Virus record (IMG/VR): IMGVR_UViG_3300029504_000052
Strand: one strand, 5' to 3'
Length of the DNA: 5,111 nt
From: a virus
Taxonomy: Duplodnaviria > Heunggongvirae > Uroviricota > Caudoviricetes
Made by a program: the position numbers and the translations under genes. Each line of letters begins with the position of its first letter. The first letter of the stretch is position 1. Below, one piece after another: positions 2,007-5,111 of the stretch. Below the pieces are notes generated by a model. That model was not told the origin of the DNA. It was given only the letters and a program-made list of their open reading frames with translations, and did no database searches.

Positions 2007-2155
2007 CTGATGTCGTCAACTCATATAAAATGAGATGAGAGATCATTGCAGGGTGGTTTGTAATTCGCTGTTTAGCGGGACAATATGTTGTCTGATACAA
2101 GACACCCGACGCCTCAGATTACTATAATAAAGACGAAGCATCCTTTGTATTGACC

Positions 2156-2181
2156 AACCGCCTGTTTAGGCGGTTCTTTTT
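2156..2181 (+). terminator. Candidate rho-independent terminator
   Basis: AACCGCC - tgttta - GGCGGTT followed by CTTTTT: a 7-bp stem, 6-nt loop and T-rich tail. The reverse-strand version lacks a T-tract. Confidence 0.45.
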
Positions 2182-2713
2182 GGGCTGGTTTATTGTATGC
2201 CAAATGATTATTAAAAAGGTTGTGTTAATAACAAAATCCGAAATAATATGCCTGCATATTTTTATCTTGCTTATATTCTGCATATTGTGCATAGCAGGCT
2301 CATCCCTGCAATCAAAACTGTATGATGAGTATTTTTTGTTTTCCTTTTTTCCAGTCATCTGATGATGACCTGCTTCTTTTTAATCCGGATCGACATCAGT
2401 TTTTTAAGATAATTCCTGCGAGTTATATGCATAAATACCACAAACTCCGCATTTTATGTGGTTGGGAGTTGCCGGGCGCGCAGTGAGTTTGCTAAGAAAA
2501 CTCCTGCATGGTGAATCCCCCTGTGCGGTGGGGTGATACCATTAACCTTTTCTGTCGCCGACAGGTATCACGAACATTTTGTTCACCGGGAGGCACCCGG
2601 CACCATGCACTTCAATAGATTCTCTCCACATTATGGATATTCTTTCAGAATATCCCACGCAGACTTTGTGTAAATGTTAACAAATGTGCGTTTTATTTGA
2701 TCTGATTCGCTGT

Positions 2714-2743
2714 TTGAGCGTCCAAAACAACGGTATATATAAT
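2714..2743 (+). promoter_or_regulatory. Candidate sigma70 promoter of the TolA-III-like lipoprotein cassette
   Basis: TTGAGC at 2714-2719, an 18-nt spacer, then a perfect TATAAT at 2738-2743 inside TATATATAAT, about 30 nt upstream of the ATG at 2773. A GAGGAA ribosome-binding site sits at 2765-2770. Confidence 0.4.
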
Positions 2744-2772
2744 CCTTTACTATATGACATATGTGAGGAAAA

Positions 2773-3201
2773 ATGGGTTTTCGTAGCGCATCAATTCTTA
2801 CGTTGATTATTAGTGGGATTATTATCGGGTGCACTGATGCTGTATCGACAAATTATCATGACCGTACATCATATTACTCCGATAAAGCAATAGAGACACA
2901 GTATGTGAGTTCATCTGAACGTACTTCTGATGTTAGTGAGGATATCCGTCTGTATGCCCATCAAATCAAGAGCGCCATCGAAAAACAGTTCGGGGATGCG
3001 AGTAAGTATTCAGGAAAAGAGTGTACACTGAGAATGCATATGGCCCCGAATGGCCTTCTACTGGAGGTTAAAAGAGAAAGTGGAGACCTCGATTTATGTC
3101 GTGAAGCGATGAATGCGATAAAGAATGCTGATATACCTGCCCCCCCTTCGCCGGAAGTATATAAAGTATTTCAAAATGGGGTGCTGGATTTTAAACCCTG
3201 A
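2773..3201 (+). CDS. Prophage lipoprotein with a TolA C-terminal (domain III)-like domain, paralog 1 (142 aa)
   Basis: N-terminus MGFRSASILTLIISGIIIGC is a type II signal peptide with lipobox IIGC and Thr at +2, predicting outer-membrane sorting. The C-terminal ~80 residues (YAHQIKSAIEKQFGDASKYSGKECTLRMHMAPNGLLLEVKRESGDLDLCREAMNAIKNADIPAPPSPEVYKVFQNGVLDFKP) closely parallel my recollection of the E. coli TolA C-terminus, including both Cys and the terminal LDFKP. Confidence 0.85.
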   Translation: MGFRSASILTLIISGIIIGCTDAVSTNYHDRTSYYSDKAIETQYVSSSERTSDVSEDIRLYAHQIKSAIEKQFGDASKYSGKECTLRMHMAPNGLLLEVKRESGDLDLCREAMNAIKNADIPAPPSPEVYKVFQNGVLDFKP

Positions 3202-3351
3202 TATTTATTGTTTTGTAATAAACGGTTTCGGCTTAGGTTTGTTCTGACACAGCTACGGCACTGAGCTAAATTTAGCGGATAGTCAGCTCTGAGCCAGTGG
3301 CGGACGTAACAACTACTATTGCTGAGATTTTAATGGATTGAGGAGCAAGAA

Positions 3352-3747
3352 GTGGGATTAAAGAAAATCGTTATGTTGACTTTTTGGGTCGGTTTTGTTG
3401 CGGGATGCACACCTTTACACCCTTCAGATTGCCACAAAACTACTGCTACAGGTAGTTGCAGTTCAGGACGCTGGGATGATCAGGATGAATGGGGGGCGCA
3501 AGCGCGGGGAATCAGAGCTGCAATTAATGCCAAACTTGATGAGCCGCATAACTGGAAAGGGAAAAAATGCAGGTTGCATATGGAATTCTCTCAGGATGGC
3601 ACGGCGTTAAAAATATCTACCAGTAACGGTGATAAAGCCTATTGCGAAGCGATAAAGTCCGCAGCTCATAAAGCCAAATTTCCGGCCTTCAACAATCCGG
3701 AAGTCTACAGAGATTTTCAGAAATCTGGCTTTGACATGCGAGGTTAG
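3352..3747 (+). CDS. Prophage lipoprotein with a diverged TolA-III-like domain, paralog 2 (131 aa)
   Basis: GTG start at 3352 with an AGGAG ribosome-binding site at 3341-3345. Signal peptide MGLKKIVMLTFWVGFVAGC has lipobox VAGC and Thr at +2. The C-terminal domain (GKKCRLHMEFSQDGTALKISTSNGDKAYCEAIKSAAHKAKFPAFNNPEVYRDFQKSGF) keeps the two-Cys spacing and the PEVY..FQ motif of paralog 1, at roughly 30% identity by eye. Confidence 0.8.
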   Translation: MGLKKIVMLTFWVGFVAGCTPLHPSDCHKTTATGSCSSGRWDDQDEWGAQARGIRAAINAKLDEPHNWKGKKCRLHMEFSQDGTALKISTSNGDKAYCEAIKSAAHKAKFPAFNNPEVYRDFQKSGFDMRG

Positions 3748-3872: not shown

Positions 3873-3895
3873 AGCTCGCTACGGCGAGCTTTTTA
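3873..3895 (+). terminator. Candidate rho-independent terminator closing the lipoprotein cassette
   Basis: AGCTCGC - tacg - GCGAGCT followed by TTTTAT: a perfect 7-bp stem and 4-nt loop, about 125 bp after the paralog 2 stop. Confidence 0.5.
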
Positions 3896-3998
3896 TATTG
3901 CATCGTCTCCAGCATATATATCAATTAAGGCTCTGATTGATGTGTCTGAAAGCCTACACATAATAACTATGCCATCCGTTCCGTGCGGAGGTGAGGCT

Positions 3999-4214
3999 AT
4001 GAAATCCATGGACAAAATTTCAACAGGCATTGCCTACGGCACCTCCGCAGGCAGTGCTGGCTACTGGTTTTTACAGTTGCTCGATAGAGTAACTCCGTCA
4101 CAGTGGGCTGCAATCGGTGTGCTGGGTAGTCTGGTATTTGGCCTGCTGACGTACCTGACAAACCTTTATTTCAAGATTAAAGAAGATAAGCGCAAGGCTG
4201 CGAGAGGTGAATAA
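3999..4214 (+). CDS. S: Class II holin (pinholin), phage 21 S21 type, with dual-start motif (71 aa)
   Basis: [71 protein letters not shown] is near-identical to my recollection of S21 / EssD. Met1 and Met4 give the antiholin/holin dual start. GGAGGTGAGG ribosome-binding site at 3987-3996. The stop overlaps the endolysin ATG (TAATG). The ORF-track extension back to 3942 uses a GTG and is not the real start. Confidence 0.9.
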
Positions 4215-4343: not shown

Positions 4344-5111
4344 ATATTGTTGGTGGATTTGCCCCTATATTTCCAGACATCTGTTATCACTTAACCCATT
4401 ACAAGCCCGCTGCCGCAGATATTCCCGTGGCGAGCGATAACCCAGCGCACTATGCGGATGCCATTCGTTATAATGCTCGAACGCCTCTGCAAGGTTCTTT
4501 GCTGCCGTTAACCCGTCTGGTTTGGGCATGATACTGATGTAGTCACGCTTTATCGTTTTCACGAAGCTCTCTGCTATTCCGTTACTCTCCGGACTCCGCA
4601 CCGCCGTGTTCTTCGGTTCAAGTCCCAACATCCGGGCGAACTGGCGTGTTTCATTAGCCCGGTAGCATGAACCATTATCCGTCAGCCACTCCACTGGAGA
4701 CGACGGAAGATCGTTGCCGAAGCGGCGTTCCACCGCTCCCAGCATGACGTCCTGTACTGTTTCACTGTTGAAGCCGCCGGTAGTCACCGCCCAGTGCAGT
4801 GCCTCACGATCACAGCAGTCCAGCGCGAACGTGACACGCAGTCTCTCTCCGTTATCACAGCAGAACTCGAACCCGTCAGAGCACCATCGCTGATTGCTTT
4901 CTTTCACGGCCACTCTGCCTGTATGTGCCCGTTTCGATGGCGGTACAGCAGGTTTTCGCTCAAGCAACAGCGCATTCTGGCGCATGATCCGGTAAACACG
5001 TTTGGCATTGATCGCAGGCATACCATCAAGTTCTGCCTGTCTGCGAAGCTGCGCCCATACCCGACGATAACCATACGTGGGCAGCTCTCCGATAACATGG
5101 TGTATACGGAG
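4344..5111 (-). mobile_element. IS2 (IS3 family) insertion sequence, partial; continues past the window end
   Basis: TGGATTTGCCCCTATATTTCCAGACATCTGTTATCACTTAACCC at 4344-4387 matches the reverse complement of the IS2 right terminal inverted repeat as I recall it. It is followed on the minus strand by the IS2 orfB (InsD) transposase. Confidence 0.9.
4365..5111 (-). CDS. insD: IS2 transposase OrfB (InsD), C-terminal ~250 aa; N-terminus lies beyond the window
   Basis: Minus-strand translation ...[52 protein letters not shown]...[19 protein letters not shown]...CLEI is the DDE integrase/transposase of IS2. The frame stays open upstream of the track's Met (5021) to the window edge, so the true start is outside the window. 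Stop at 4365-4367. Confidence 0.9.

Follow-up and report, generated by a model that had tools for sequence, protein, structure and literature searches.

A mobile cargo gene for a predicted TolA-III lipoprotein in an Escherichia coli prophage remnant

The P1–P2 locus and the architecture of P2

We analysed a 5111-nucleotide stretch of DNA deposited as a virus record (IMG/VR IMGVR_UViG_3300029504_000052; the whole stretch is referred to below as the window), focusing on the gene at 3352–3747, here called P2, which follows a gene for a second protein of similar plan, P1. The window is an Escherichia coli chromosomal prophage remnant; all 5111 of its 5111 bases match two complete genomes exactly. 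Both profile score and fold assign the P2 protein to the TolA_C domain family, yet it is not a bona fide TolA. Its gene is a stand-alone piece of cargo, namely an open reading frame (ORF) with a leader of about 40 nt, and belongs to a clade that moves among prophages, I-complex plasmids and enterobacterial chromosomes. In the window, mosaic recombination has brought it together with the P1 module, in a cargo site that has a Q-like antiterminator gene on one side and the lysis cassette on the other. The annotations of E. coli SE11 and of phage mEp460_ev081 show the same Q–P1–P2–holin order. The features of the window are listed below, with the strand where one was assigned.

300–899: DUF1367 gene
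899–1189: YbcO/DUF1364 gene
1186–1728: DUF1133 gene with a weak Q-antiterminator match (Q-like gene)
2476–2662, plus strand: STnc100 small RNA (sRNA; Rfam RF02076), full-length match, 86.6 bits against a gathering score of 47, E = 2.9e-18
2714–2743, plus strand: candidate sigma-70-like promoter TTGAGC-18-TATAAT, 10/12 matches in a consensus scan, 30 nt 5′ of P1
2773–3201, plus strand: P1 lipoprotein, 142 residues; lipobox IIG/C with Thr at +2 and Asp at +3, linker and TolA-III domain
3203–3311, no strand: mosaic junction, from blastn of the window against prophages L019/L020 and a six-context DNA alignment
3340–3345, plus strand: Shine–Dalgarno sequence GAGGAG, from sequence and alignment, within the leader of about 40 nt conserved across P2 contexts
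3352–3747, plus strand: P2 ORF, 131 residues, from GTG 3352 to TAG 3745–3747
3352–3408, plus strand: signal peptide (residues 1–18) and lipobox V16-A17-G18-C19, from the translation; the Cys19 codon, 3406–3408, is the predicted lipidation site
3406–3492, plus strand: conserved N-terminal module of mature P2, C-T-PLHPSDCHKTTATGSCSSGRWDDQDEWG, containing C27 and C36
3481–3744, plus strand: TolA-III (TolA C-terminal) domain, residues 44–131, from Pfam, phmmer, AlphaFold and Foldseek
3873–3898, plus strand: intrinsic-terminator-like hairpin AGCTCGC-TACG-GCGAGCT with a T run, from a consensus scan, between P2 and the holin gene
3999–4214, plus strand: P21-type holin, start of the lysis cassette (Pfam Phage_holin_2_1, E = 4.5e-35; essD in the SE11 annotation)
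about 4354–5111, minus strand: IS2 copy (RefSeq ‘IS3-like element IS2 family transposase’; Pfam rve domains)

The GAGGAG sequence ends 6 nt before the GTG at 3352. This start position is occupied by GTG in the chromosomal copies of P2 and by ATG in the plasmid copies, and conservation between copies begins about 40 nt upstream. RefSeq calls a product of 124 residues from an internal ATG at 3373, which lacks the Lys-Lys n-region of the signal peptide. Because of the Shine–Dalgarno spacing, the conserved ATG/GTG, the limit of conservation and the Lys-Lys n-region, GTG 3352 is the better start. Public start calls for P2-type genes disagree in general, with products of 124, 131, 135 and 143–149 residues (window, 3352 versus 3373; L002, 8774–9148; L004, 5965–6396). 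P2 is not a chance ORF, given a Pfam TolA score above cut-off and homologues under strong purifying selection.

The predicted signal peptide of P2, MGLKKIVMLTFWVGFVAG, is cleaved before a cysteine and has a Lys-Lys n-region and a 13-residue hydrophobic core; it can be parsed as MGLKK / IVMLTFWVGF / VAG, and the cysteine is followed by Thr at +2 and Pro at +3. A charged n-region, a core, a lipobox of the form [LVI][ASTVI][GAS]C and the absence of Asp at +2 are thus all found in P2. A lipobox-like motif occurs within the first 60 residues in 120 of 120 close homologues, and the +2 residue is Ala or Thr in those inspected. Since the +2 residue is Thr and not the Asp that signals retention, sorting to the outer membrane is predicted, and we infer from the sequence that P2 would be lipidated and reach that membrane. 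The initial annotation of this gene had read the lipobox VAGC with Thr at +2, two additional cysteines (C27 in SDCHK and C36 in GSCSS) and a C-terminal PEVY..FQ motif from the letters alone, and all of these are present (PEVYRDFQ in P2 and PEVYKVFQ in P1). It had also judged P2 by eye to be less AT-rich than P1, which holds modestly: the computed GC content is 46.0% for P2 (43% at third codon positions, GC3) and 42.4% for P1 (GC3 36%).

Profile searches place P2 in TolA_C, as expected from its earlier description as a TolA-III-like lipoprotein, and not in an unrelated family. Pfam PF06519 matches residues 44–125 (profile positions 10–92 of 96) with 54.6 bits against a cut-off of 25 (E = 1.3e-14), and the Pfam scan of P2 yields no family above cut-off other than TolA. 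A phmmer comparison of P2 with the TolA-III sequences of the PDB gives a gapless alignment (E = 5e-9). In the AlphaFold model the predicted local distance difference test (pLDDT) score exceeds 90 over residues 41–131, with helices at 41–61, 95–107 and 116–122 and strands at 72–79, 85–93 and 124–130. This model superposes on E. coli TolA-III (PDB entries 3qdp, 3qdr and 2x9a) with template-modelling (TM) scores of 0.90–0.92 and a root-mean-square deviation of 1.1–1.3 Å over 85–93 residues, as measured by Foldseek. The cysteines of the disulfide pair, C73 and C98, are invariant in the alignment, and their 25-residue spacing, already pointed out in the initial annotation, is that of C84/C109 in P1 and C363/C388 in E. 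coli TolA. About 22 residues separate the lipid cysteine of P2 from the domain.

P2 therefore shares with E. coli TolA-III (PDB entries 1TOL, 1S62, 3QDP/3QDR and 2X9A) its fold, a gapless alignment, the spacing of the disulfide pair and a proline-free C-terminal β3 strand in which the Asp is kept. It differs from E. coli TolA in having neither the transmembrane anchor (domain I) nor the long Ala/Lys-rich helical domain II; its lipoprotein signal is predicted to tether it to the outer membrane and not to the TolQR motor. Moreover, the P2 gene lies outside any tol–pal operon, with the Q-like gene and the holin gene as neighbours, and its product carries an extra conserved Cys-loop module. P2 falls below the equivalog cut-offs of the NCBIfam TolA models, which it matches at their C-terminal end only (TIGR02794, 47.2 versus 59.45; NF007065, 53.7 versus 213). 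P1, whose Pfam TolA match has E = 2.4e-23, likewise fails NF007065 (107.8 versus 213), but passes TIGR02794 (75.6 versus 59.45), again at the C-terminal end of the model only. The RefSeq name of P1, ‘tolA: cell envelope integrity protein TolA’, may come from this pass; it is misleading because P1 is a short lipoprotein among phage genes. Public annotation is thus corrected on two points: P1 is not ‘tolA’, and the start codons of P2 are called inconsistently in public records. P1 and P2 are both assigned to PHROG 5772, labelled as of unknown function.

The mature N-terminus of P2 had been described as unrelated to that of P1 and enriched in cysteines; this is so, and the region is furthermore a conserved module that defines the clade. 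The consensus of its first 29 mature residues is C-x-PLHPSxCHKTTATGSCSSGRWDDQDEWG, with most positions at least 95% conserved among 136 cluster representatives. C27 is invariant and C36 nearly so in relatives of P2 down to about 30% identity, and a disulfide loop between the two cysteines is probable. Residues 1–40 are not confidently modelled by AlphaFold (pLDDT of about 45–65 with broad and with Cys-loop-subfamily alignments). Between contexts, P2 copies differ by 0.5–1.1 substitutions per synonymous site (dS) and 0.02–0.08 per non-synonymous site (dN), with dN/dS of 0.04–0.12. The ratio is 0.01–0.07 for the N-terminal module, a constraint at least equal to that on the domain. The linker of P1 behaves as a variable spacer (dN/dS 0.4–0.8), and the P1 domain has values of 0.09–0.34. 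We also considered that P2 might be a decaying pseudogene or a captured tolA fragment; both are ruled out by the dN/dS of 0.04–0.12 together with the intact lipoboxes.

Mosaic origin and distribution of P2

P1 and P2 are adjacent on the same strand and share the plan of lipobox, linker and TolA-III domain, the domains align without gaps and both proteins fall in one PHROG. All of this would suit an old tandem duplication inside the prophage followed by divergence, which was the favoured reading of the initial annotation. BLASTP aligns P1 with P2 at 29% identity over 141 columns (E = 2e-18), and the domains are 28% identical over 88 gapless residues, close to the 30% estimated earlier by hand; recent identical duplicates or an assembly artefact are thereby put aside. 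Over the same 88 residues, however, identity to E. coli TolA-III is 59% for P1 and 31% for P2, so that P1 is twice as similar to the host domain as to P2. We built a neighbour-joining tree of 93 domain sequences, comprising both clades, representatives at 50% identity taken from the results of an exhaustive HMMER search, and the E. coli TolA-III domain; being a distance method applied to 84 columns, it gives unreliable deep branches. It is nevertheless clear that sisterhood has no support: P1 and P2 form an exclusive pair in 0 of 500 bootstraps, whereas the P1 clade is recovered in 496 and P2 with its Cys-loop relatives in 394. In the distance table, the nearest sequence to P1 outside its own clade is E. 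coli TolA-III, and the nearest to P2 are other short Cys-loop lipoproteins. The N-terminal regions of P1 and P2 are also unrelated and under opposite selective regimes.

The synteny points the same way. Variants of P1 with 91% and 66% identity occupy the same Q–holin site in other prophages, and neither P2 nor a relic of it is found in those prophages. The sequence that the window shares with the P1-only prophages L019 and L020 covers the sRNA region and P1, breaks off at the P1 stop codon (3202) and picks up again only at the holin gene (blastn); the leader common to P2 copies elsewhere begins at about 3312. P2-type genes also stand alone on plasmids and in other genera. The identities, the bootstraps, the P1-only prophages and the breakpoint at the P1 stop codon argue that P1 and P2 are separate mosaic modules. 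A tandem duplication is thus highly improbable, and the fallback offered beside it, two independently acquired genes, is the explanation favoured by identity, tree and synteny. The two proteins remain alike in their plan, their cargo site and possibly their transcription unit. They differ in that P1 is close to host TolA-III and keeps both of its ligand edges (see below), and in that P1 is found in E. coli and Shigella prophages only, whereas P2 occurs on plasmids and in several genera.

Two of the features by which morons (autonomous cargo units in the late region of lambdoid phages) are recognized are seen at the cargo site: the GC content of P1 and P2 (42–46%) lies below that of the flanking phage genes (47–50%), and their presence is polymorphic between related prophages. 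For a third, a promoter and a terminator of their own, the consensus scan gives candidate sites at the two ends of the P1–P2 pair. About 1 kb of AT-rich non-coding DNA, which houses the STnc100 match, separates the Q-like gene from P1. The candidate promoter at 2714–2743 could drive P1 and P2 without the late promoter, and the hairpin at 3873–3898, a consensus match only, would close the unit; the scan finds no terminator-like site between P1 and P2. The holin ORF begins (3999–4010) with MKSM, two Met codons three codons apart. A dual Met start is a pattern typical of holin/antiholin pairs. A longer, GTG-started holin ORF from 3942 is probably unused because the Pfam match begins at its residue 24. 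The ORF after the holin gene (start 4214), which by eye we take to be a SAR endolysin, is broken by IS2 after about 47 codons. The lysis cassette is therefore dead through the IS2 insertion, while P1 and P2 are intact. As side observations, the STnc100 match sits inside the module (window 2100–3202) common to the P1-only prophages, a 37-nt piece of it is seen again 3′ of P1 in L019 and L020 (5724–5760), and the left end of the window (1 to about 160) resembles by eye an IS1 end, where IS1A is annotated in a related genome.

P2 is the more widespread of the two genes. At the 90% cluster level it has 370 relatives and P1 46; the best 120 of the 370 are 78–99% identical to P2 over 93–100% of its length. 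The P2 relatives are named from Citrobacter, Enterobacter, Serratia, Raoultella, Klebsiella oxytoca, Shigella and others, and those of P1 that bear names are all from E. coli or Shigella. In a set of 5426 complete E. coli genomes, P2 is found in 1269, P1 in 888 and the exact P1–P2 pair in 773. The matching E. coli records include 784 with a chromosomal variant of P2 at least 99% identical to that of the window and 515 with a variant of 80–90% identity; plasmids account for 525 of the 1350 matching places in these genomes.

On plasmids, an 88% identical P2 lies directly 3′ of nikA–nikB (annotated as mobA and relaxase) and converges on trbCBA. The plasmids concerned are typed IncK2/Z, IncI1/B/O and IncI-gamma/K1. 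A contiguous nikB 3′ end and P2 are found in 593 plasmids and a related nikB without P2 in 263, which makes P2 an accessory gene of the I-complex plasmids. The 100-nt gap after nikB yielded neither a promoter-like nor a terminator-like site, and P2 might accordingly be co-transcribed with the relaxase operon. This possibility, and the constant place right after nikA–nikB, converging on trbCBA, in IncB/O/K/Z/I-gamma plasmids, could indicate that P2 serves conjugation, be it in the formation of mating pairs, in entry exclusion or by protecting the envelope of the donor; the copy in the prophage would then be a by-product of gene flow. We consider such a role rather improbable: P2 is missing beside 263 related nikB genes, is equally conserved in chromosomes without transfer genes nearby and also occurs on pO157-type plasmids typed as non-mobilizable, and tolA mutants reportedly conjugate normally (PMC3102678).

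The P2 copy on the pO157-type IncF plasmid carries about 0.9 kb of the nikB 3′ end and differs from the I-complex copy by a dS of 0.015. With this attached piece and near-identity, it appears to derive from an I-complex plasmid, as a fragment left by recombination. The nikB piece, 99.7% identical to I-complex plasmids, is located after psiB–psiA–hok and before toxB (L003, 5000–6393; H84–H88). An explanation of this copy by the logic of a leading, early-entry region was tried and is ruled out by the attached nikB 3′ end of about 0.9 kb.

The chromosomal copies in other genera are 84–86% identical, single genes in unrelated neighbourhoods. The Enterobacter copy is flanked by a glutathione peroxidase gene and a RidA-like gene, the Citrobacter copy has a WYL regulator gene and prophage relics nearby, and the Serratia copy adjoins a GmrSD-like (GmrSD_N) and HEPN gene pair (L013/L014, 8957–10736). 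The six-context DNA alignment shows that the ORF and its leader of about 40 nt are all that these contexts have in common. Among 50 697 deposited phage genomes the P1–P2 pair is found in one (mEp460_ev081), compared with 14% of complete E. coli genomes, and a search of the BFVD viral structure library gave no fold match at E up to 0.001. The TolA-III fold thus seems close to absent from isolated phages, the pair residing almost entirely in resident, often defective prophages. In two sequences from other genomes (P0169 and P0170), P2 is cut after about residue 73; P0169 continues into a same-frame peptide that is also found past the IS2 junction of the window, and IS2 has apparently inserted within P2 there.

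Ligand surfaces and possible roles

Colicin A adds a strand to β2 of TolA (L375–P380) and makes cation–π contacts with K368, K379 and K396 (PMC3365938). The β3 strand (A415–K420) is extended in the same manner by the g3p-N1 domain, colicin N and the N-terminus of TolB, mainly through backbone hydrogen bonds, and single proline substitutions abolish binding (PMC4339652, PMC7391070). TolA binds colicin N with an affinity of 1 µM and TolB with about 40 µM (PMC4339652), and it is the coreceptor of the F- and I-pilus filamentous phages (PMC3102678; PDB entry 2x9a). We mapped these published interfaces onto P1 and P2 through the gapless alignment.

β2 strand (colicin A): TolA LLDIKP; P1 LLEVKR; P2 ALKIST
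Positions 368, 379 and 396: TolA K, K, K; P1 H, K, K; P2 E, S, H
β3 strand (g3p, colicin N, TolB): TolA APLDFK; P1 GVLDFK; P2 SGFDMR

P1 is a near copy of both ligand edges of TolA. In P2, all three lysines of the colicin A site are gone, and β3 is free of proline and retains the Asp. The substitutions are a property of the clade: its consensus has E and S at positions 368 and 379 in at least 95% of sequences, and no residue reaches 70% at position 396. Since the predicted surfaces differ, different ligands for P1 and P2 are plausible, and the alignment supports different ligand ranges for the two proteins.

We propose, with about as much confidence as doubt, that P2 is an outer-membrane-tethered decoy that blocks Tol-dependent entry. 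P2 would be anchored at the inner face of the outer membrane, and the 22 or so residues between lipid cysteine and domain would place TolA-III just beneath it, in the zone where TolA-III meets TolB–Pal and where colicin and g3p epitopes emerge. Its free β3 edge could then offer β-strand addition to the N1 domain of g3p and to colicins using the same edge, and might also trap the N-terminus of TolB, which Tol-dependent colicins require. Such capture would uncouple invaders from the energized TolQRA motor. Together, P1 and P2 may cover overlapping yet different ligand sets, and on I-complex plasmids P2 could protect the host against filamentous phages, such as If1, that gain entry by way of the pilus encoded by the plasmid. 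The affinity of TolA for colicin N is about 40 times that for TolB, so that decoy in modest amounts could titrate invaders and hardly disturb Tol–Pal. Two features of the locus are consistent with a decoy that serves the lysogen. P1 and P2 are intact and identical in 773 genomes while the endolysin is cut by IS2, which points to a benefit for the host and not to a role in lysis only, and the promoter-like and terminator-like sites that bracket P1–P2 fit a function benefiting the lysogen.

Several points weigh against the decoy. It leaves the conserved N-terminal module of P2 unexplained in its simple form, and the first helix of TolA that contacts g3p, GADINNYA, reads QDEWGAQA in P2. The selection on P2 across genera suits a conserved partner, for example the TolB N-terminus, better than an arms race with toxins or phages. 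The P2 gene lies within a late transcription unit, and the promoter and terminator proposed for P1–P2 are consensus matches alone. In enterohaemorrhagic E. coli, a prophage gene described as ‘TolA-type’, possibly a P1 homologue, is reported to be up 32-fold with ciprofloxacin, which suits late expression equally (PMC11125564). PHROG 5772 is listed with function unknown, and the PADLOC-DB 2.0 models gave no match for P1 or P2 (for P2, at E up to 0.1).

The same late position also suits a different partner and purpose. P2 might modulate Tol–Pal, an explanation we think unlikely, by binding the TolB N-terminus and stopping TolA from pulling TolB off Pal. The further suggestion that the tie between outer membrane and cell wall would thereby loosen and vesiculation rise, helping phage lysis and release and tuning the envelope for plasmids and chromosomes, is similarly improbable. 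P2 sits in the late operon directly 5′ of the holin gene, is under strong purifying selection across genera, as would suit a conserved host partner, and keeps the TolB-binding β3 edge. According to a review, vesicle production could in principle be regulated via TolB interactions (PMC7391070), and the induction reported for the prophage ‘TolA’ gene mentioned above is of the late type (PMC11125564). On the other hand, P1 and P2 stay intact, and identical in 773 genomes, with the endolysin destroyed by IS2, and the P1–P2 unit has promoter-like and terminator-like sites of its own. P2 also occurs on plasmids and chromosomes without lysis genes nearby, where tol-like leakiness would be costly, and the TolA–TolB interaction is so weak (about 40 µM; PMC4339652) that titration of TolB would need high expression. 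If it were true, outer-membrane stability and vesiculation would be under the control of a mobile gene.

To return to the decoy, it may be extended to the whole clade, tentatively and with more doubt than for P2 itself: P2 and its relatives, as TolA-III domains tethered to the outer membrane, would form a natural class of mobile immunity genes, ‘coreceptor mimics’ that trap any invader exploiting TolA. I-complex plasmids would have such a gene beside that of their relaxase and thereby immunize their hosts against filamentous phages that use the plasmid pilus, and prophages would stack two versions with unlike ligand surfaces. P1 and P2 would then broadly shield the cell from colicins and phages that depend on Tol, and the Cys-loop module could be a second binding element.

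Known systems and the wider class of TolA-III lipoproteins

Cor (phages phi80, N15 and mEp) and Llp (phage T5) are small phage lipoproteins that are encoded by accessory genes and act in superinfection exclusion. They inactivate the FhuA receptor and protect the host by interfering with the entry of other phages and in some cases of colicins. P2 would resemble them as a small phage-encoded lipoprotein interfering with entry. It differs in having no sequence relation to them (the Pfam scan of P2 returned TolA only) and in that it would mimic a periplasmic coreceptor domain and not block a receptor. Closer to the proposed mechanism, work of Levengood-Freyermuth and colleagues from 1993 reportedly found that periplasmic C-terminal fragments of TolA lead to colicin tolerance. 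Engineered periplasmic N-terminal domains of g3p, as summarized in a later paper, stop Ff infection (Boeke et al., 1982, as cited in PMC3102678). Taken together, the results with g3p and with TolA fragments suggest that free copies of either binding partner can hinder Tol-dependent entry. Those constructs are artificial, soluble and over-produced and cause envelope defects, whereas P1 and P2 are natural, predicted to be lipid-anchored, mobile and under purifying selection.

No functional study of P1/P2-type lipoproteins was found in the full-text literature, in which subscription journals are thinly covered, so that an older study may be missed. Two matches were ‘TolA protein’ in tables of strain-specific genes or cases of confusion with tolA. 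The assignment of a TolA domain was already known from public annotation; the present analysis adds the mobile architecture with its predicted lipid anchor and the conserved extra module. TolA-III is the entry point common to group A colicins and filamentous phages, and here is a widespread, mobile and strongly conserved copy, predicted to be anchored at the outer membrane, for which we found no functional study. A decoy of this kind, if real, would be a one-gene determinant of colicin tolerance and filamentous-phage resistance, and would bear on bacteriocin and phage therapies, on the hosts used for phage display and on the ecology of plasmids and pilus-specific phages. If the extension to coreceptor mimics held, roughly one in four complete E. 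coli genomes would possess a hitherto undescribed mode of superinfection exclusion and bacteriocin tolerance.

P2 also has more distant relatives. It matches 130 representative clusters, 67 of which are of 110–174 residues; 52 of these 67 have a lipobox and 11 the Cys loop too. Judged from these sequences, short lipoproteins consisting of the TolA-III domain alone form a large and diverse class. A third homologue search, started from a diverse alignment, again returned almost exclusively the P2 clade.

Some individual neighbourhoods and architectures may be added. A relative 59% identical to P2 (P0168) lies about 500 bp 3′ of three genes on a single metagenomic contig (L025, 324–4822). Two of these encode a membrane-fusion protein and a Peptidase_C39 ABC exporter, a pair for the export of a bacteriocin or microcin, and the third a hydrophobic protein of 60–71 residues; the arrangement is a possible link to bacteriocin loci. 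On a Klebsiella IncR plasmid (L022, 4217–8648), a 35% identical lipoprotein gene named ‘tolA’ stands beside a thioredoxin-fold gene, and its neighbours include a DUF1778/GNAT toxin–antitoxin pair and a TIR-domain gene; anecdotally, this neighbourhood and that of the Serratia copy are defence-island-like. Other architectures occur among distant P2 relatives (P0207, P0223, P0263, P0205 and P0216). Lipoproteins of about 205–235 residues appear by eye to have a TonB-C-like domain fused to TolA-III. Finally, two long distant relatives contain multiple matched stretches, namely a protein of 804 residues with 11, which looks like a translated repeat, and one of 2512 residues with six.

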